From the NCBI GenBank assembly GCA_011170375.1, contig DUEV01000009.1, positions 1,694-65,693 of the forward strand: a DNA stretch of 64,000 bases, written 5' to 3'. The notes beneath the pieces are model-generated. The model was not told the origin of the DNA. It saw only the letters and a list, made by a program, of their open reading frames with translations, and ran no database searches. Both the position numbers and the translations under genes were made by a program. The DNA is from Dehalococcoidia bacterium (GTDB lineage Bacteria; Chloroflexota; Dehalococcoidia; Dehalococcoidales; Fen-1064). The first letter of the stretch is position 1, and each line of letters opens with the position of its first letter. Below are positions 2,432 through 64,000 of the stretch, in pieces.

Positions 2432-2470
2432 GTTCAGCCCCTTTCATTCGATAAGATAGATAAATGGTTT

Positions 2471-5400
2471 TTATGCCTCAAGGATTTCTTTATGCTTCAA
2501 TGCACGCTCTAGGGAGGGCTGCATTTTCATCTCGCGGAACTCACTGATGGCGAAGTCCAGGTGCTGCAATGCTTCCTTTTTCTCCTCCGGGTAGTGCTCC
2601 AGGAGTAGCTCACCAAGCTGGAGCCGGGTGAGGGCTATTTCGGGGCGGAACCTCATATCGGTAGCGAGCTTCAGGGCTTCAGTGTAGTAGGTACGGGCTT
2701 CCTCCGGTCTGCCCAGGAGGGCCGCCGCTGCTCCCATATGACGTCCAGCGCAGGTTGTATAAAAATGACCCGTTGTGCGCCTGCTGCTATCAGCTAATCG
2801 GTCGAGCAGTAGTTGAACCGCCTGGTGGTGCCCCACCAGAATCGCGGCCTCCAGGAGCTGAATATCATGGTGTTCCGGCCTTTCATCCGCGGCAGAGCCA
2901 ATGCCAGGACGTGTCATAACATGCTCTTCTATAATCTTCACCGCCTGCTCCTCTCGTCCAAGGTGAGCCAGGCCGAGAGCCATTATTGTAGTATCAGCTG
3001 AAGCCTCCAACGTTTGCTCGAGGTAATCGTCGGCTTTTCCAAGATGTAACTGCGGCCTGAGGCTACTTACAGCCGCCTGTATGCTAGCAAATTCATGAAG
3101 CTCCAGTTCTTCGCCGCGAGACACGATGTCATGGGCCATTTTTACGGCCTCTTCTAAGTGCCCATCCAGGGCAGCCAGGGCGGTATCGAACGACTGTGAT
3201 ATGAGCAGAAGATTTGCCTGTTTGTTGTGCTCAGCCAGACCTCGGAACTCTATCATGATCTCTTCGGCACGTTGCCGTTGCCCCCAAGTGAGGAAAGTTG
3301 ACGCCGTCATGTATAGCGCCATGATAACCATTCCGGTACGCGACATTGCCGCCAGTTCCTCAGCCAGTCGAAGCTGTTCCTCAGCATGCTGTGGCGCCAA
3401 TACGAAGTGCATCCAGTAGGAGGCAACCAGCCAGAATGTTCCGGGCTGGTCAAGGCGACGAGCCAGCTCAAGGGCTCTACTGAGTAGAGGGACTCCCTCG
3501 TCTGGATGGTCCATAGTGCATTTAACTGTTCCTAAAAACATGTCAGCCCGAGCCCGGTCTACTGTGTCTGGTTCAGCATATTGGTCAGCTCTCTCCGCCC
3601 ACTGGACTGCCTCAGGGCTGCGAAACGCCGACAGAGCACCATAGTTTATCAACGCAGCCATAGCCCGCCGGCAGACCTGCAATGCACGCTTCCTGTCACC
3701 GATATCCTCGGCCAGGGAAAATGCTGCGGGCAGTTCAACGTCGAGAGCACGTCTAGGTTCACCGGCGATATTCAGGGCGCTTGCCAGGACCTCGAGCAGG
3801 TCACACCGCTTTCCCTTATCCTCTGGGTCCACTATCTCTTGTATCTTCAGGGCCTGCGCCAGCAACCGTACCGCTTCCGCGTAAGCGTAGACAGACCGTG
3901 CTCGTTGCGCGGCCATCTCACCATAGCTGACTGCCTTGGCTAGGTCAGCAGCATCTGAGGAGTATGAGAAATGTTCGGCAAGCTCAACAGCGTGCTCCTC
4001 AAGTCGTGTAGCATAAACCTCCTCTAATACTCGGGCTACCTGCTGGTGTAAACGGATACGCTCAGGGGCAATCATCTCCTCATACAGGGTCTGACGGAAG
4101 AAGGCATGAGCAAAGCGGTATGTCACCGCCGCTCCCACCGAAGGACGTTCCTCCACAACCGCGGCCCCTTTCGCCTGCCGTAAGACAGCAAACAGCTCGT
4201 CTTCAGAAACTCCAACTACGCGTTGCAATACTACCAGTCGGAATTCCCGCCCGATAACAGAGGCAATGGAAAGCAGGCGATTGCACTCCGGGCTCAGAAG
4301 GGTCAGACGCTTGCCAATGACGTCCCGCAACCCTTCCGGTATGCTCATCGCTAGAGGTGTATCCCTAGTCGCCCGCCAGCGTCCTTCTTCATGGCTGATG
4401 AGCCCCTCTTCGACCAGGTAACGCACTACCTCCTGCACGAAGAGCGGATTCCCCTCTGTCTGCCGGTGTACCGCTTCGGCCAAGCTCCAAGGGATTTCCT
4501 GTCCCGTGATGCTCTCCAGCATCCGCCTGACCTCATCAGCATTGAGGCCACGCAAGAGGACGCGGTCAAAGGTAGCAACACGCCTTAGCTCAGCCAGCGC
4601 TGCTGACAACGAATGGGTACGGTTAATTTCCACATCGCGATATGTGCCAACAATTAAAAGCCGCACCCCGACAAGGTTGTGGGAGACATGTATCAACATC
4701 TCTAGAGTACCCTTGTCGGCATCATGCAGGTCTTCCAGTAAAATAAGCAGCGGCTGGACTTTAGCAGCATTGGTAAGGAAACTGGTAACCGCCTGCATGA
4801 GGCGGTAGCGCTCTTCCTCTGGACTCTCGGATGGTTTTGGCTCTACCTTCAGCTTCTCCCTTATCTCAGAGATGATACGGGCAACGTCAGCCGCACCAGT
4901 ACCAAGCTCCCTCCTCAAGTCTCTGGTATCACGGGTGAGGACATAGGATCGCATCGCTTCAACGAAAGCCAGGTATGGAAGCGACAAAGACCCTTCCTCG
5001 TAGCAGTGTCCCACCAGGGTCTTGCCACCTCTGAGTGTCACGTAGGTAGATAGCTGCTCACAAAGGGCGGTCTTACCGATACCCGGCTCACCCACCACCA
5101 TCATCAAGGCGCCCTGCCCCGACATGGCACCGTCAAAGGCTGCCTGGAGCTGTTTCTGCTCCGTTTCACGGCCAACGAAGACACGGCGGTAGAGGGGACT
5201 TTCGGGTGCCGTGGCTACCTGTGATACTGTCTCGGTTACCTTACCCTGTTCAATGGACTCCAGGATTTTGAGGACGTCAGCCGCCGAGGCGGGTCTTTTC
5301 TCTGGGTCTTTCTCAAGTAGTTGCAGAATAAGCACTTCTAGTCCCGGCGGCAGGTCGGCCCGGTGCCAGGTGGGTGATACTACCGAGGTGTTGATGTGCT

Positions 5401-6262
5401 GCCCAATGATAGCCACCGAATCATCCCCGATGAAGGGTGGTCTACCCGTTACCATCTCGTAGAGCATCGCTCCCAGCGAGTAGAGGTCTGCTTTCGGTGT
5501 TAACTTGCCGCCCATTGCCTGCTCCGGTGGCATGTAGGATACCGTACCTACCATCATCCCCGACTGCGTAAGGCGGGAGAGGTCGACCGCCACCGCTAGA
5601 CCGAAGTCGCCTATCTTGGCAGTACCGTCGGCACTAAGCCAGACGTTACCAGGCTTCAAATCTCTATGGATGATACCCTTCGAGTGAGCAAACTCCAGGC
5701 CCTGGCAGACTGATTTGGTAATGCCGATAACCTGCTCGAGAGGTAGTCGGTGTTCGGGTGCCTTCTCGATAAGCCCCTCGACGTCCCCGCCGGACATAAC
5801 AGGCAGGACAATGTAGGGCTGGCCCTCGTGCTCCCCCATATCATGGATAGTGACGATATTGTGATGGTCACCGAGCCTGCCCATAGCCTGAGCTTCACGC
5901 TTGATACGGGTACGAGCCTCGTCGTCAAGTTTCTCGATCTTTATAAGCGCAAAGGCAACGTCGCGGTCTAGGGTATTGTCATGTACCAGGTAGACCTTCT
6001 TCTTACCACCTTCACCAAGTAACTGCTTGACTTGGTAACGGCCACTAGCAAAGGAGGTGGGTTGAGAGGAGGATGGCGCTTCGGGGGTTGGTACAGGTGC
6101 CTGCTCAGTCAAGGGATGGCCGCACTTAAAACAGAATTCATGGTCCTGCGGATTCGCATTCCCGCATTGTGGACACACGATCTCGGACTGGAGCGACTGG
6201 CCGCACTTACCGCAGAATAGTGCTCCACCCAGATTGTCGTACTGGCACTTCGGGCATATCAT
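2471..6262 (-). CDS. multidomain Ser/Thr protein kinase: double zinc ribbon + kinase + AAA/STAND ATPase + TPR-like C-terminal region (PknK-like architecture)
   Basis: Domains read from the translation:
- Two CxxC..CxxC pairs at the N-terminus.
- Kinase motifs VAFALIK, HRDLKPGN, DFG and SYMPPE.
- Walker A GEPGIGKT and Walker B LLILLEDLHDAD.
- A long helical repeat C-terminus.
I moved the start to MICPKCQ (6262), because the ORF-track start at 6307 overlaps a promoter conserved with the paralog. Confidence 0.85.
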   Translation of the reverse strand: MICPKCQYDNLGGALFCGKCGQSLQSEIVCPQCGNANPQDHEFCFKCGHPLTEQAPVPTPEAPSSSQPTSFASGRYQVKQLLGEGGKKKVYLVHDNTLDRDVAFALIKIEKLDDEARTRIKREAQAMGRLGDHHNIVTIHDMGEHEGQPYIVLPVMSGGDVEGLIEKAPEHRLPLEQVIGITKSVCQGLEFAHSKGIIHRDLKPGNVWLSADGTAKIGDFGLAVAVDLSRLTQSGMMVGTVSYMPPEQAMGGKLTPKADLYSLGAMLYEMVTGRPPFIGDDSVAIIGQHINTSVVSPTWHRADLPPGLEVLILQLLEKDPEKRPASAADVLKILESIEQGKVTETVSQVATAPESPLYRRVFVGRETEQKQLQAAFDGAMSGQGALMMVVGEPGIGKTALCEQLSTYVTLRGGKTLVGHCYEEGSLSLPYLAFVEAMRSYVLTRDTRDLRRELGTGAADVARIISEIREKLKVEPKPSESPEEERYRLMQAVTSFLTNAAKVQPLLILLEDLHDADKGTLEMLIHVSHNLVGVRLLIVGTYRDVEINRTHSLSAALAELRRVATFDRVLLRGLNADEVRRMLESITGQEIPWSLAEAVHRQTEGNPLFVQEVVRYLVEEGLISHEEGRWRATRDTPLAMSIPEGLRDVIGKRLTLLSPECNRLLSIASVIGREFRLVVLQRVVGVSEDELFAVLRQAKGAAVVEERPSVGAAVTYRFAHAFFRQTLYEEMIAPERIRLHQQVARVLEEVYATRLEEHAVELAEHFSYSSDAADLAKAVSYGEMAAQRARSVYAYAEAVRLLAQALKIQEIVDPEDKGKRCDLLEVLASALNIAGEPRRALDVELPAAFSLAEDIGDRKRALQVCRRAMAALINYGALSAFRSPEAVQWAERADQYAEPDTVDRARADMFLGTVKCTMDHPDEGVPLLSRALELARRLDQPGTFWLVASYWMHFVLAPQHAEEQLRLAEELAAMSRTGMVIMALYMTASTFLTWGQRQRAEEIMIEFRGLAEHNKQANLLLISQSFDTALAALDGHLEEAVKMAHDIVSRGEELELHEFASIQAAVSSLRPQLHLGKADDYLEQTLEASADTTIMALGLAHLGREEQAVKIIEEHVMTRPGIGSAADERPEHHDIQLLEAAILVGHHQAVQLLLDRLADSSRRTTGHFYTTCAGRHMGAAAALLGRPEEARTYYTEALKLATDMRFRPEIALTRLQLGELLLEHYPEEKKEALQHLDFAISEFREMKMQPSLERALKHKEILEA

Positions 6263-6294
6263 GTCGAACGCCTCTGTGCTGGCTCGGTGCCCAT

Positions 6295-6323
6295 AGTCTA
6301 GAGGCAAATCAGGGTGATGTCAA
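6295..6323 (-). promoter_or_regulatory. sigma70-like promoter of kinase 1 (-35 TTGACA, 17 nt spacer, -10 TAGACT)
   Basis: The minus strand reads TTGACA-N17-TAGACT. The same arrangement and surrounding sequence are conserved upstream of the paralog at 10359..10387. Confidence 0.5.
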
Positions 6324-6528
6324 GACGCGAAAGCGTAGAATGAAAAAACATCGAGATGTCGACATGGGCGTAAAAATTACTTGATTCCTTTTTGTTTCAG
6401 TGTAAAAAGGTCACAATCTGAGTATTTGTGACATTACGGTTACTACCTACTAAATTGTTAAACGGAATAAAAAAAGGAATGAATGTCTGCCTGCGTGGGG
6501 GTGGGTAAGTACCAACAGGGCTGAGGTT

Positions 6529-9500
6529 CTACGCCCCCAGTATCTCCTTGTGCCTCAGTGCCCTCTCCAGCGAGGGCTGCATCTTCATCTCGCGGAACTC
6601 GTTGATGGCGAAGTTCAGGTGCTCCAGTGCCTCCTTTTTCTCCTCCGGGTAGTGCTCTAATAGGAGCTCGGCGAGCTGGAGACGGGTGAGGGCCAGCTCT
6701 GGGCGGAACCTCGCATCTGTGCAGACCTTGATGGCTTCCTGGTAGTGCTTACGGGCTTCTTCATATCTGCCCAGAAAAGCGGTGGCAGCTCCAAGATGGC
6801 GTGGGACGCATGTCATTGTCCACACAACGTTTACAGGAGCGAAACTGCCGGTGTACCGACGAAGCAGCAGCTCAGCCCCTTCCTGGTGCCTGACCAGCAA
6901 TGCTGCCTCAAGATACGCAATACTTTCGGACCCGGGGGTCTCGTCCGCGGCGGAGCCAGCACCCGGGCGTTTCACGACAAGCTCGTCCAGCATTTCCTTC
7001 ACCTCAGCATCCCGGCCGAGGTGCGCCAGCCATAGCACCCTCTCTTCGGGTCTTACTGTTGCCTGACGGGTTTCCATGAACCGAAGATGTTCCTCGAGCT
7101 TTCCGAGGTAGAGCGGGGCCTGTCCAGTGCCACCAGTTATTGTGAGAGCGAATTCAAGGACACCCAGTTCCTCGGCACGGGCGAACAGTCGACCATATAT
7201 CTCTACGGCTTCCTCCAGGTGCCCATCCAGAGTCGCCAGCCAGATGTCATACCACATTGATATGATTCGGTAAAGCCCTACTCTGGAACGCTCTACCAGA
7301 TCCCGGCACTCGCCCATGCACATCTCATAGCGCTGGCGCTGCCCCCACTCCAAGAAGACAGCGCCCATATATTGGAGGGTATTTATTTGGTCCCGTATGT
7401 TCTGGTCAGCACGTGATTGCTTTATTATTTCCTCCATTTCCTCTGCCAGGTGCAGCCTCTCCTCGGCGTGCTGTGGCGCCTGTACCCAATACAACCACAA
7501 ACTGGCTACCAACATGAATGTGAGGGTGTCACCAAGGCGGCGGGCCAGCTCGAGGGCACGGGTGAGGAGGGGCACGCCTTCCTCCCAATTGTCTACAACG
7601 CACTTCACCTGCCCAAGAAACATGTCAGCCCAGGCTCGCGCCGCTGTACCCGGCTCAGCGTAGCGGTCGGCCTGCGCCGCCCATTCGGCTCCCTCAGTGC
7701 CGACCTCCTTAGTCCAGCTAAGCAGCGCCCCCCTAGCCAACTGGCAGGTCCGGAAGGCACGCCGGCTGTCACCGATTTCCTCGGCCAGTGAGAAAGCTCT
7801 CGGTATCTCGACATCGAGAGCGTGACGAGGTTCGTCTGCCAGGACGAGAGCATTGCCCAGGGCTCGCAGCAGGTCGCACCGCTGGGTCTTGTCCTCTGGG
7901 TCAAGCACCTCCTGTACCTTAAGGGCTTGCTCCAGTAGCCGCACGTTTTCCCCGTAGGCGTAGACAGCCAGTGCACGTCGCGCCGCCATCTCACTGTACT
8001 CCAGGGCTTTCACCAGGTCCTCATGTTCGGTGCTCTGAGCAAAGTGCTCGGCCAGCTCAGCCGCATGCTCCTCGCGCCGTCTTGCGTACACCTGTTCCAG
8101 AGCACGGCCCACCTGCTGGTGGATGCGGATACGGCGTGGGGTAAATATCTCTTCATAGAGTATCTGGCGGAAGAAGGCATGGGTGAAACGGAAGGTAGCA
8201 CCGACCCCCACGGCGGAGCGCTCCTCCAGCACCGCAGCGTTCTTGGCTTCTTCCAGAGCAGAGAGAAGCTTGTCCTCTGGTACCTCAGCTACTCTCTGCA
8301 GAACATCAAGACGGAACTCCCGACCGATGACAGCAGCAATAGAGAGTAGCTGGTTGCACTCCGTGCTCAGAAAAGACAGGCGTTTGCCTACGACGTCACG
8401 CAACCCCTCGGGGATGCTCATCTCCAGTGTGGTAACCCGCCACTGTCCTTCTTCACGACTGATAAGCCCCTCCTCAACCAGATAACGTACCACCTCCTGC
8501 ACGAAGAGGGGGTTGCCCTCGGTCTGGCGGTGTACCGCCTCGGCCAGACCCCAGGGTACCTCCTGCCTGGTGATGCTCTCCAGCATCCGCCTGACCTCAT
8601 CGGCATTGAGACCACGTAAGAGGACGCGGTCAAAGGTGGCGACACGCCGTAACTCCGCGAGCGCTGCCGATAATGGGTGGCTGCGGTCTACTTCAACATC
8701 ACGATAGGTGCCGACAATCAGGAGCCTTGCACCTGACAGGTTACGCGAGACGTGGGTCAGCATCTCTAAAGTACCCTTGTCAGAATCGTGCAGGTCTTCT
8801 AATATAATCAGTAATGGCTGAACGGTGGCAGCGCTGGTTAGGAAACTGGTGACAGCCTGCATGAGCCGGTAGCGCTCCTCCTCAGGGTCACCTGGTGGTC
8901 TCGGCTCTACCTTGAGCTTTTCCCTTACCTCGGAGACGATACGGGCAACATCTGCAGCCCCCGTACCCAGTTCCCTCCGCAAGTCTCTGGTCTCTCGTGA
9001 CAGCACATAGGAGCGCATCGCCTCGACAAAGGCCAGATAGGGCAGCGACAGCGAGCCTTCCTCGTAGCAGTGACCCACCAGGGTCTTACCGCCTCTCAGT
9101 GTGACGTAGGTAGCCAATTGCTCGCAGAGAGCGGTCTTACCGATACCCGGCTCTCCTACTACCATCATCAGGGCACCCTGCCCCGACATGGCACCGTCAA
9201 AGGCCGCCTGCAACTGCTTCTGCTCCGGTTCACGGCCAACAAACACCTTTCTATATAGGGGGCTCTCCGGGGCAGCCGTTACCTGTGATGGCTCTTTCTC
9301 AACCTTACCCTGCTCAAGGGACTCTAAAGCCTTAAGCACATCACCAGCCGAGTTAGGCCTTTTCTCCGGGTCTTTCTCAAGCAGTTGCAGGATGAGCACC
9401 TCTAGTCCTGGTGGCAGGTCGGCCCGGTGCCATGTGGGCGATACCACCGACGTGTTGATGTGCTGGCCAATGATGGCCACCGAGTCGTCCCCGATGAAGG

Positions 9501-10326
9501 GCGGTCTGCCTGTCACCATCTCGTAGAGTATTGCCCCCAGTGAATAGAGATCGGCTTTCGGTGTTACCTTGCCACCCATCGCCTGCTCCGGGGGCATGTA
9601 GGACACCGTGCCCACCATCATGCCCGACTGTGTCAGGCGGGAGAGGTCAACTGCCACCGCCAGACCGAAGTCGCCGAGCTTGGCGGTACCGTCGGCACTG
9701 AGCCAGACGTTACCCGGTTTCAAGTCTCTATGGATGATACCCTTGGCATGGGCGAACTCCAAGCCCTGACAGACACACCTGGTAATGTAGATAGCCTGTT
9801 CGAGGGGTAGTCGGTGCTCGGGTGCTTTCTCGATAAGCCCCTCGACATCACCACCAGACATCAGGGGTAGAACGATATAGGGCTGGCCCTCTTGCTCCCC
9901 GAAGTCATAGACAGTGACGATATTTGGGTGGTCGCCGAGCCTGCCCATCGCCTGGGCCTCACGCTTGATGCGGGTACGGGCCTCGTCGTCGAGCTTTTCG
10001 GTCTTAATCAGGGCAAAGGCCACGTCACGGTCAAGGGTGTTATCGTGGGCCAGGTATACCTTTTTCTTACCGCCCTCACCGAGGAACTGCTTGACCTGGT
10101 AGCGGCCCCCAGCGAAGGAGGTGGGTTCGGGGGAGGGGGGCGCTTCAGAAACTGGTGTGGGTGCCGGTTCGGCCAATGGGTGGCCACATTTCTCACAGAA
10201 TCCACTGTCTGCAGGATTGGCATGTCCACACTGAGGGCACTCAAGTTCTGATTGCAGTGACTGGCCGCATTTTCTGCAGAACTCAGCCCCTTCGCGATTC
10301 TCTGTCTGGCATTTTGGGCACTTCAC
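6529..10326 (-). CDS. multidomain Ser/Thr protein kinase, tandem paralog of 2471..6262 (zinc ribbon + kinase + STAND ATPase + TPR)
   Basis: 1265 aa with the same motif set (HRDLKPGN, DFG, GEPGIGKT, ILEDLHDSD). Identity to the neighbour is very high across the N-terminal about 650 aa and the last about 60 aa, and much lower in between. Confidence 0.85.
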   Translation of the reverse strand: MKCPKCQTENREGAEFCRKCGQSLQSELECPQCGHANPADSGFCEKCGHPLAEPAPTPVSEAPPSPEPTSFAGGRYQVKQFLGEGGKKKVYLAHDNTLDRDVAFALIKTEKLDDEARTRIKREAQAMGRLGDHPNIVTVYDFGEQEGQPYIVLPLMSGGDVEGLIEKAPEHRLPLEQAIYITRCVCQGLEFAHAKGIIHRDLKPGNVWLSADGTAKLGDFGLAVAVDLSRLTQSGMMVGTVSYMPPEQAMGGKVTPKADLYSLGAILYEMVTGRPPFIGDDSVAIIGQHINTSVVSPTWHRADLPPGLEVLILQLLEKDPEKRPNSAGDVLKALESLEQGKVEKEPSQVTAAPESPLYRKVFVGREPEQKQLQAAFDGAMSGQGALMMVVGEPGIGKTALCEQLATYVTLRGGKTLVGHCYEEGSLSLPYLAFVEAMRSYVLSRETRDLRRELGTGAADVARIVSEVREKLKVEPRPPGDPEEERYRLMQAVTSFLTSAATVQPLLIILEDLHDSDKGTLEMLTHVSRNLSGARLLIVGTYRDVEVDRSHPLSAALAELRRVATFDRVLLRGLNADEVRRMLESITRQEVPWGLAEAVHRQTEGNPLFVQEVVRYLVEEGLISREEGQWRVTTLEMSIPEGLRDVVGKRLSFLSTECNQLLSIAAVIGREFRLDVLQRVAEVPEDKLLSALEEAKNAAVLEERSAVGVGATFRFTHAFFRQILYEEIFTPRRIRIHQQVGRALEQVYARRREEHAAELAEHFAQSTEHEDLVKALEYSEMAARRALAVYAYGENVRLLEQALKVQEVLDPEDKTQRCDLLRALGNALVLADEPRHALDVEIPRAFSLAEEIGDSRRAFRTCQLARGALLSWTKEVGTEGAEWAAQADRYAEPGTAARAWADMFLGQVKCVVDNWEEGVPLLTRALELARRLGDTLTFMLVASLWLYWVQAPQHAEERLHLAEEMEEIIKQSRADQNIRDQINTLQYMGAVFLEWGQRQRYEMCMGECRDLVERSRVGLYRIISMWYDIWLATLDGHLEEAVEIYGRLFARAEELGVLEFALTITGGTGQAPLYLGKLEEHLRFMETRQATVRPEERVLWLAHLGRDAEVKEMLDELVVKRPGAGSAADETPGSESIAYLEAALLVRHQEGAELLLRRYTGSFAPVNVVWTMTCVPRHLGAATAFLGRYEEARKHYQEAIKVCTDARFRPELALTRLQLAELLLEHYPEEKKEALEHLNFAINEFREMKMQPSLERALRHKEILGA

Positions 10327-10358
10327 GGCTCACTCGCAGGCACAGGTTCAGTGCCCAC

Positions 10359-10387
10359 AGTCTAGAGGTAAACTAAAGTGATGTCAA
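10359..10387 (-). promoter_or_regulatory. sigma70-like promoter of kinase 2 (-35 TTGACA, 17 nt spacer, -10 TAGACT)
   Basis: The minus strand reads TTGACA-N17-TAGACT, 33 nt upstream of the ATG at 10326. It is homologous to 6295..6323. Confidence 0.5.
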
Positions 10388-63048: not shown

Positions 63049-64000
63049 CTAAAATGCCTCTGGTTCTCCCTTGATTTCGGAGGCATTTTCTTTTTTGCTA
63101 ATAATTTGCAAATAATGATTTTCAACAGTGGGATTTTCACGCCTAATATTGAGTATTTTATCAAAGCTCTCTGCTGCTGCTTCTTGAAGTCCGGGAGCAA
63201 CATGGCTATAAGTATCGAGTGTTAATGCAATAGAGCTGTGCCCTAACCGCTCCTGTACTATCTTTGGATGTATTCCTGCCTTAAGCATTAATGAAGCATG
63301 GCTGTGCCTCGCATCATGCAGGCGAATTCCTCTCAAGTTTGTACGTCGTACTAGCTTAATCCAGGCGTGAGTTACTGTGTCGGGTAAGAGTGGTTTACCT
63401 TCCAGATCGCTAAATACTAGGTCATCATCTCTTAATGGTATTCCAAGCATGGTACGATCCAGCTCTTGCTTTTCCTTATGCTCTCTAAGGACCGAAACGG
63501 CTGTGGGCGAAAGGGCAATCATACGTCGACCCTTCGTTGTCTTGGGCGCTTTAAAGATAATGTTTCCATCCCGGAGATGATGAAGAGTGCGGGTGATATA
63601 AATCTGACAAAGAAGAAGATCAATGTCAGACCACCTTAATGCTAGTAGTTCCGATCTTCTCATGCCGCTATAAATTGCTGTGTGGAATAAAGCATAGTAG
63701 GGTGTTGATATGGCAGTTTCAAGGAGGGTATGAATATCATCTTCACTAAGTGTGTTCCATTCTGGACGTTGATACCGAGGTGGGCTAACTCCATCTGCGG
63801 GATTCCTTGATAACAATCCCCATTTTACGGCACTCTCTAAGGCGTCATGCAGAGTTACATGGTGGTGTCTTACGGTACGAGGACTTAATGCTCCTTTACC
63901 ATCACAACGTCCGTTTGACAGTTTTTCGGAGTAGTAGCGTTGAAGGTTCTCAGGTTTTAGTTGTGCTAGTGGCATATTACCAAGTGAAGGTATGAGGTGA
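63049..64000 (-). CDS. tyrosine-type site-specific integrase (phage integrase family), 5' end beyond the window
   Basis: Catalytic motifs RRSELLALRW, HDARHSHASLML, LGHSSIALTLDTYSH. The reading frame stays open upstream of the first ATG as far as the window edge (..TLIPSLGNMPLAQLKPENL, a typical core-binding domain motif). The stop codon lies 11 nt from the tRNA-fMet 3' end. Confidence 0.85.
   Translation of the reverse strand, partial: HLIPSLGNMPLAQLKPENLQRYYSEKLSNGRCDGKGALSPRTVRHHHVTLHDALESAVKWGLLSRNPADGVSPPRYQRPEWNTLSEDDIHTLLETAISTPYYALFHTAIYSGMRRSELLALRWSDIDLLLCQIYITRTLHHLRDGNIIFKAPKTTKGRRMIALSPTAVSVLREHKEKQELDRTMLGIPLRDDDLVFSDLEGKPLLPDTVTHAWIKLVRRTNLRGIRLHDARHSHASLMLKAGIHPKIVQERLGHSSIALTLDTYSHVAPGLQEAAAESFDKILNIRRENPTVENHYLQIISKKENASEIKGEPEAF

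Follow-up and report, generated by a model that had tools for sequence, protein, structure and literature searches.

Why does one genome carry, side by side, two genes for giant proteins that share a single architecture, are nearly identical over their kinase parts, and differ strongly towards their C termini? We examined this question in a stretch of 64,000 nucleotides from a Dehalococcoidia bacterium (contig DUEV01000009.1, positions 1,694 to 65,693; hereafter, the window). Dehalococcoidia are abundant and mostly uncultured bacteria of the subsurface and marine sediments; their genomes are small, and their regulation is poorly understood. An earlier note on this DNA had compared the two genes, designated here as A and B, with regulators of the MalT/PknK type and with immune sensors. 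We consider it probable (roughly 0.68) that A and B encode MalT/PknK-type, ligand-gated, oligomerizing Ser/Thr kinases with different sensors and near-identical outputs.

Genes A and B are two neighboring open reading frames (ORFs) on the same strand, as identified from the ORF list and its translations. The expectation of two adjacent genes of approximately 1260 aa with one architecture was borne out: the proteins have 1263 and 1265 aa, and Pfam detected DZR/Zn_ribbon, Pkinase, AAA_16, and a C-terminal TPR_12 in both. The genes and their parts are as follows (STAND, signal transduction ATPase with numerous domains; TPR, tetratricopeptide repeat; NOD, nucleotide-binding oligomerization domain, composed of a nucleotide-binding domain [NBD], helical domain [HD], and winged-helix domain [WHD]; HSP, high-scoring segment pair; AF2, AlphaFold2; pLDDT, predicted local distance difference test score; omega, dN/dS).

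2471..6262, minus strand: gene A (protein P0012), 1263 aa, with a double zinc ribbon, Hanks Ser/Thr kinase, AAA_16 STAND NTPase, TPR-like sensor, and conserved tail
6529..10326, minus strand: gene B (protein P0002), 1265 aa, with the same architecture as gene A
5273..6037, minus strand: gene A kinase domain, residues ~76-330 (Pkinase, E = 6.5e-49)
9352..10101, minus strand: gene B kinase domain, residues ~76-325 (Pkinase, E = 8.8e-50)
4028..5179, minus strand: gene A NOD (NBD-HD-WHD), residues ~362-745 (AAA_16, E = 2.1e-26), with limits transferred from the gene B model
8092..9243, minus strand: gene B NOD, residues ~362-745 (AAA_16, E = 3.8e-27), an alpha/beta core, helical domain, and winged helix in the AF2 model
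2744..3345, minus strand: gene A hypervariable sensor core, unalignable to B as DNA (the gap between two blastn HSPs), with amino acid identity of 0.33-0.50
6802..7427, minus strand: gene B hypervariable sensor core, the blastn HSP gap against A, with amino acid identity of 0.33-0.50, modeled entirely as alpha-hairpins (pLDDT > 90)
2474..2728, minus strand: gene A conserved C-terminal TPR cap (TPR_12 match); DNA homology to B resumes at 2744..2469
6532..6786, minus strand: gene B conserved C-terminal TPR cap, residues ~1181-1265 (TPR_12, E = 7e-10; omega 0.16; family identity 0.78-0.86)

The kinase domains of A and B matched the Hanks-kinase profile PF00069 with 167 and 170 bits, respectively, against a cut-off of 31.7. 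The same motifs were present in both, namely GEGGKKKV (residue 83), VAFALIK (102), REAQAM (122), HRDLKPGN (199), DFG (219), and GTVSYMPPE (239). They cover the Gly-rich loop, the VAIK lysine, the alpha-C glutamate, HRD, DFG, and the APE-type end of the activation loop. Since all of the catalytic motifs are intact, both Ser/Thr kinases are predicted to be catalytically competent. The AAA_16 profile matched with 94 and 96 bits (cut-off, 32.6), and the motifs of a STAND NTPase were found in both proteins: Walker A GEPGIGKT (391), Walker B LLI(L/I)LEDLH (505; LLILLEDLH in gene A), and the GxP motif TEGNPLF (602).

An AF2 model of B residues 350-1265 (pLDDT, 78.6; predicted TM-score, 0.65) consisted of an alpha/beta NTPase core, helical and winged-helix parts, and approximately 500 residues of alpha-hairpin repeats. 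It showed the order NBD-HD-WHD, arm, and repeat sensor, with low confidence in an insert of the NBD (B residues ~421-500). Foldseek ranked PH0952 (6MFV, a STAND protein with TPRs; E = 3.6e-11) first, followed by Apaf-1, MalT (8BOB), NLRC4, CED-4, and ORC/Cdc6, and the solenoid matched TPR proteins. The layout proposed in the earlier note, an effector kinase followed by a STAND NTPase and a repeat sensor, was supported by Pfam, the motifs, the AF2 model, and Foldseek. Profile and structure prediction of the C-terminal repeats, one of the checks it had suggested, yielded TPR_12 and an alpha-hairpin solenoid with pLDDT > 90.

In PknK of Mycobacterium tuberculosis, a Hanks kinase occupies the N terminus, and an AAA_16-type NTPase and a regulatory helical/TPR region come after it. 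A and B resemble PknK in being soluble, with no transmembrane helix in either protein, and in the order of kinase, AAA_16 NTPase, and helical/TPR region; the resemblance is one of architecture only. In contrast to PknK, A and B have an extra double zinc ribbon before the kinase, with four CxxC pairs kept in both, and belong to a multi-copy, recombining family of Dehalococcoidia; the substrates and biology of PknK are not transferable to them. MalT and the other large ATP-binding regulators of the LuxR family (LAL), as well as PH0952, share with A and B a NOD with Walker A, Walker B, and GNP(L/F)F motifs, followed by an arm and a TPR-like sensor. Furthermore, close relatives of the module of A bear the LuxR/GerE helix-turn-helix (HTH) domain typical of LAL regulators. 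However, the output of A and B is an N-terminal kinase and not a C-terminal DNA-binding domain. Pfam did not detect PF00196 (LuxR/GerE HTH) in either protein and both end in the TPR cap, which sets them apart from LAL/MalT transcription factors. MalT and PknK have been placed in one bacterial STAND subfamily, for which a ligand-gated arm-sensor switch was modeled on the basis of MalT (PMC4381067).

The module of NOD, sensor, and cap is not tied to kinases. It is also joined to a class III cyclase (PF00211) or a GerE/LuxR HTH (PF00196) instead of the kinase; these relatives are 38-50% identical even in the most variable part, and in some of them the same zinc ribbons precede the module. With B residues 800-1265 as the query, a search retrieved 1,793 cluster representatives, some with ~80 further residues after the module. 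Among STAND adenylate cyclases and fusions of the thiazole/oxazole-modified microcin (TOMM) type, cyclase-bearing proteins, some with the same double zinc ribbon, have a sensor module that is 38-43% identical. The best NCBIfam match of the STAND region was TIGR03903 (TOMM kinase/cyclase; model positions 483-932, E = 1e-86). However, its score of 291.5-291.8 bits is far under the cut-off of 705.75, and A and B, in which Pfam did not detect PF00211, are without a cyclase domain. TOMM biosynthesis genes were also absent near A and B. Therefore, we did not assign A and B to the TOMM kinase/cyclases.

By analogy with MalT and other STAND proteins, the parts of A and B may work together as follows. 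The kinase would be the output, the MalT-clade NOD (AAA_16; NBD-HD-WHD) would serve oligomerization, and the helical arm and TPR-like solenoid would receive the input. In the resting state, the protein would be ADP-bound, with its NOD held closed by the arm and sensor. A ligand on the variable sensor would free the arm, ADP would be exchanged for ATP, and oligomerization would follow. Once clustered, the kinase domains may phosphorylate one another's activation loops (trans-autophosphorylation) as well as substrates whose genes lie elsewhere in the genome. With kinases that are ~90% identical and sensors only 33-50% identical, A and B most likely relay different signals to phospho-outputs of one kind, presumably through shared substrates.

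How the two proteins differ was assessed in sliding windows of 60 codons, in which amino acid identity, the proportion of synonymous differences (pS), and dN/dS were calculated. Over 1270 columns, A and B were 72% identical (BLASTP). Identity was 0.67-0.75 in the zinc ribbons, 0.82-0.97 at residues ~60-640 (kinase and P-loop NTPase), 0.48-0.72 at residues 650-950, 0.33-0.50 at residues 950-1190, and 0.77-0.85 over the last ~85 residues. These values matched identities previously estimated by eye, and the profile was clearly non-uniform (0.33-0.97), where uniform divergence would have contradicted the proposed mosaic. DNA homology between the two genes sets in precisely at the -35 box (6324 in A and 10388 in B), extends over 2993 nt at 75.7%, is lost for ~600 nt over the sensor core (A 3345..2744, B 7427..6802), and returns for the final 276 nt to the stop codon.

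Selection followed the same division. Between A and B, dN/dS was 0.02-0.10 in the kinase and NOD and 0.3-0.48 in the sensor. Among family pairs with unsaturated dS, median omega was 0.10 in the kinase, 0.075 in the NOD, 0.22 in the middle region, 0.39 in the sensor (maximum, 0.54), and 0.16 in the tail. The concentration of divergence in the C-terminal sensor was thus confirmed, with the dN/dS of this region well above that of the rest of the gene rather than at or below the average. Constraint on the sensor is clearly weaker than that on the remaining protein. Strong purifying selection keeps the chassis (promoter, kinase, and NOD) nearly constant, and the sensor, which lies outside conversion, evolves approximately 4-5 times faster at non-synonymous sites. 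In the comparison of B with its relative P0004, omega was 0.62 at residues 941-1110 and reached ~1.0-1.1 in windows within residues 1021-1110, and some sensor sites may be under diversifying selection. Positive selection over a whole domain was not detected, since omega never exceeded 1 domain-wide.

The origin of the pair was attributed in the earlier note to a recent duplication or ongoing gene conversion. A and B are adjacent, on the same strand, and have a promoter in common. Moreover, pS is somewhat lower in the kinase and NOD (0.45-0.66) than in the middle region and sensor (0.57-0.84), as may be expected if mutual conversion had homogenized the two genes with the sensor alone escaping, and this process was observed in other genomes. 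However, synonymous sites differ throughout, with pS of 0.45-0.84 across all windows and an overall dS of ~1.3, near saturation, and the longest exact DNA run common to A and B is 32 nt. In a tree of 121 sequences, A paired with P0022, and B with P0003 (97% identical), P0004 (85%), P0038, and P0006. P0003 and P0004 come from other metagenomes, and both A and B are closer to genes in other assemblies than to each other. Neither the whole-gene tree nor any of the four partition trees (kinase, NTPase, middle, and sensor) placed A and B as nearest neighbors, and the nearest neighbor of A differed between the partition trees. Tandem pairs in other genomes are equally old. Based on dS, the trees, and the 32-nt run, A and B are old, long-separated paralogs without recent conversion between them, and a recent origin or mutual homogenization of the pair is highly improbable. 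The part of the earlier claim that stood is conversion that spares the sensor, which occurs elsewhere in the family.

This family of cytoplasmic STAND kinases is very large and centered on Dehalococcoidia. Among 8,000 candidates, more than 6,600 proteins matched at E <= 1e-10; most have 1,260-1,275 aa and, along their full length, share 67-76% identity with B. In a collection that represents each species by a single genome, more than 548 family stretches were detected. Homologs of A and B are annotated as Dehalococcoidia, and the sequencing runs that carry A/B sequence are marine-sediment or seawater metagenomes. Many metagenome-assembled genomes (MAGs) have multiple copies; one contained at least 10 loci, others contained 3-5, and same-strand tandem pairs recur (L006, L018, L020, L029, L032, L041, L057, and L073). 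The survey of copy number and C-terminal variation in relatives that had been suggested therefore revealed a multi-copy family with variable sensors. Mean identity within the family was 0.80-0.92 in the kinase and NOD, 0.45-0.56 at residues 900-1150, and 0.78-0.86 in the tail. The A/B identity profile correlated with the mean pairwise profile of 121 members (r = 0.90), and tandem partners in other genomes showed a similar profile and equally high dS. Mosaic divergence is a trait of the whole family, and the view that it is special to A and B did not hold. The sensor of A (residues 900-1190) had no counterpart above about 52% identity in a collection of 5.8 billion proteins, its best match being only ~51% identical. 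A literature search found no work on this family.

Full-length members, including tandem pairs, also occurred in MAGs labeled Deltaproteobacteria, Thermodesulfobacteriota, or Acidobacteriota (L014, L015, L018, L020, L024, L029, L032, L033, and L067), with 59-72% identity to gene B. They reflect either horizontal transfer out of Dehalococcoidia or binning and labeling errors. Some family genes were broken into two ORFs by frameshifts or stops (L018, L048, L058, L071, L075, and L080), mostly in MAGs with very long, possibly long-read, contigs. These split genes may be pseudogenes, which fits turnover of the family, or homopolymer sequencing errors.

Exact tracts between paralogs were detected via shared 80-mers. 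The tract in gene B and the longest exact runs in four pairs of paralogs within other genomes were as follows.

7826..9192, minus strand: 1367-nt tract of gene B (residues 379-833), 100% identical as DNA to the P0004 gene on L001, a contig of another metagenome, with flanks only ~80% identical
L039/L042: longest exact run 743 nt; loci 300 kb apart on one 2.2-Mb contig
L017/L052: longest exact run 969 nt
L009/L019: longest exact run 251 nt
L049/L080: longest exact run 201 nt; on 0.9-Mb contigs

Around the tract in gene B, dS against the P0004 gene was 1.2 in the kinase, 0.3-0.45 at residues 801-1110, and 0.6-0.75 in the tail. P0003 combines the kinase of P0004 with the NOD and sensor of B. B, P0003, and P0004, which were seen in different assemblies, thus share an identical NOD and represent three of the four kinase/sensor combinations that are possible; this three-way mosaic supports the tract. 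Within other genomes, exact tracts of 200-970 nt between paralogs were confined to the kinase/NOD part; in the four pairs listed, homology dropped out near residues 800-840 and returned only over the last 150-270 nt. Gene conversion homogenizes the chassis across the family and spares the sensor; this is a real process elsewhere, not within the A/B pair. A gene of the phage integrase family is located at L001 4411-5454, 1.4 kb upstream of the P0004 gene.

As a recombining repertoire, the family may be comparable to the clusters of NOD-like receptors (NLRs) of plants and fungi. In such a repertoire, a constant chassis, kept interchangeable by gene conversion and strong selection, would be combined with sensor cassettes re-assorted between paralogs and between genomes, giving new specificities for foreign proteins, in an immune role, or for a broad range of environmental ligands. 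The breakpoints would lie at the kinase/NOD boundary (~residue 360-380) and the arm/sensor boundary (~residue 835). If so, near-identical NODs would permit mixed oligomers of different paralogs. We regard this view of the family as doubtful.

The window and most of its relatives are short-read metagenome assemblies of a repeated family, in which an assembler may thread conserved sequence from different copies and thereby create a false tandem, or false combinations of domains within A and B. Summed unitig depth rose from ~8-10 in unique parts to 45-95 at the P-loop and ~1000-1800 in the 3' tail, and the fragmented unitigs and the three of four combinations around an identical 1.4-kb NOD tract are what unphased repeats would yield. 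Unitigs branched at 9161-9204, the junction of the gene B tract, the phase of which was unverified. However, a 316-nt Logan unitig (6242-6557) from a marine-sediment run, which may be the source sample of the window, bridges the A-B intergenic junction. Unique sensor segments, such as 2614-3938, were identical in four runs, and synonymous differences between A and B extend along their whole length. Tandem pairs and exact common tracts were also present on megabase contigs. An assembly artefact is accordingly very unlikely to account for the pair.

In the unitigs with at least 99% identity from four marine-sediment or seawater runs, summed depth was ~970-1850 over the last ~20 codons of gene B (6558-6611); the observation also covers positions 9161-9204 and 9350-9643. 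Depth in the tail is ~100-fold that of unique sequence (~10); gene copies with the conserved tail are therefore roughly 100-fold more numerous in the community. This spike raised the idea that the 3' tail is under a special constraint at the nucleotide level, but synonymous codon identity there was 0.48-0.53, similar to that in the kinase, and the idea was rejected.

Do these proteins defend rather than signal? In a repertoire similar to NLRs or Avs proteins, TPR sensors would recognize phage or other foreign proteins, the STAND part would oligomerize, and the kinase would shut down the cell or the invader, with A and B as two specificities. The family is multi-copy in many genomes (10 or more loci in one MAG, 3-5 in others). 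The sensor cassettes are variable, with omega of ~0.4 and local values near 1, and the modules are shuffled with shared breakpoints, the chassis being homogenized by conversion. The genomic surroundings of family genes show no conservation, and the P0004 gene has an integrase gene upstream of it. Similar to Avs and NLR-like sensors, A and B are stand-alone genes that combine an effector, a STAND NTPase, and a repeat sensor with a variable C terminus, and their kinase domain matches the PADLOC kinase models PD-T4-6 and mad6. However, among the best 25 of the 33-35 PADLOC matches per protein, all lay within the N-terminal kinase region (residues ~30-383; PD-T4-6, mad6, C3a189, MkoA, and PglW) and none was an Avs or other defense STAND model on the NOD or sensor, such that the matches reflect a generic kinase domain. 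The effector of A and B is a highly conserved kinase and not a nuclease, protease, or TIR domain as in Avs proteins, and the nearest module relatives are signaling proteins with classical outputs (cyclase and LuxR HTH). Purifying selection on the kinase and NOD is very strong (omega, 0.03-0.10), and omega in the sensor remains below 0.55 domain-wide. A and B lie outside any defense island, next to a beta-lactamase-fold hydrolase and DUF169 rather than defense genes; their GC content at third codon positions (GC3) is ordinary for the genome, and the window holds no remnants of further copies. The immune analogy of the earlier note thus found no direct support, and we consider a defense role to be unlikely; A and B would serve in signaling.

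The reading of A and B as ligand-gated signaling kinases also has points against it. Foldseek TM-scores were modest (0.26-0.51). A sequence search of the PDB with B residues 350-1265 found no relative; therefore, the STAND assignment rests on Pfam AAA_16, the motifs, and the predicted fold. Genomic context points to no ligand, substrate, or partner. Several features, namely multiple copies, a variable sensor, recombining modules, and local omega near 1, would also be expected of an immune-type repertoire. In addition, the Logan unitigs were fragmented over both genes, breaking inside conserved parts and junctions, and unitig depth at the conserved junction was higher on the N1 side than on the K1 side. 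Chimeric assembly could therefore account for some family mosaics, and possibly for the joining of kinase and NOD in gene B.

The tandem pair itself is ordinary and old and of a kind already known, and no new mechanism is needed to explain it; the patchwork evolution of the family is mildly interesting. Several to more than 10 copies per genome, together with a conserved tail that in these sediments is roughly 100-fold deeper than the unique sequence of this genome, suggest that this STAND kinase family is a major sensory system of Dehalococcoidia. A constant chassis, variable sensor, and conversion limited to the chassis constitute a clean bacterial case of the concerted-plus-divergent evolution known from eukaryotic NLR clusters. 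The family may also serve as a natural test set for mapping the specificity determinants of MalT-type sensors.

The promoters of the two genes were located by exact pattern matches.

6295..6323, minus strand: gene A promoter, TTGACA-N17-TAGACT, followed by a ~32-nt leader with an AGAGG ribosome-binding site
10359..10387, minus strand: gene B promoter, TTGACA-N17-TAGACT, homologous to the gene A promoter

The start of gene A was placed at the ATG at 6262, with protein P0012 beginning MICPKCQ; a longer ORF with a TTG start at 6307 was set aside because the conserved -10 element falls inside it. Upstream homology between A and B comprised 44 nt at 82% identity, covering the promoter and ~15 nt of the leader, and the remaining upstream DNA did not align. 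The homologous promoters and leaders described previously are therefore real, but are not a sign of recency, since the promoter is conserved family-wide. The exact motif was restricted to these two genes within the window. Elsewhere, TTGAC-N18-TAGACT, usually followed by GT(A/G)G, preceded 20 of 42 family genes. In the upstream regions of L001-L079, the near-consensus CTTGACA-N17-TAGACTGT(A/G)G was kept before about half of the family genes in other genomes, and the leader GGGCAC(C/T)GA(G/A)CC was also kept within the A/B subclade. The family promoter has been retained despite saturated synonymous sites, which suggests that selection favors one particular promoter or discriminator; a common regulator of the family genes possibly lies behind it. 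A and B are stand-alone, independently transcribed genes, each with its own conserved promoter.

Next to A and B, the window encodes a CPBP protease, a beta-lactamase-fold hydrolase, and DUF169, and an Fe-S handling cluster comes after these. Near A and B, the window contained no FHA, PP2C, phosphatase, kinase substrate, or HTH gene, and no neighbor gene was conserved across 78 related loci; the previous statement that no substrate or HTH gene is encoded nearby was correct. Conserved operon partners were rejected as candidates because the recurrent "neighbors" were antisense ORFs inside the family gene itself, plus a short-chain dehydrogenase in 6 loci. The gene for this dehydrogenase, the only recurrent real neighbor, directly follows the family gene in 6 of the 78 loci (L001 10743-11531, L022 9827-10738, and four others). 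Its adjacency probably reflects shared ancestry of those loci and not a functional link.

Further scars or remnants of family genes in the window were sought with tblastn and blastn, and none were found. Horizontal transfer or a foreign composition of A and B was also rejected, with GC3 of 0.59 (A) and 0.66 (B) inside the normal range of window genes; the higher total GC of A and B stems from first codon positions. GC3 was only 0.36 and 0.35 in the genes at 201-989 and 63049-63975, respectively, and ~0.5-0.68 in the rest of the window. One of these two is the CPBP/Rce1-like protease gene that adjoins the kinase pair, and the low-GC3 genes are possible foreign insertions.

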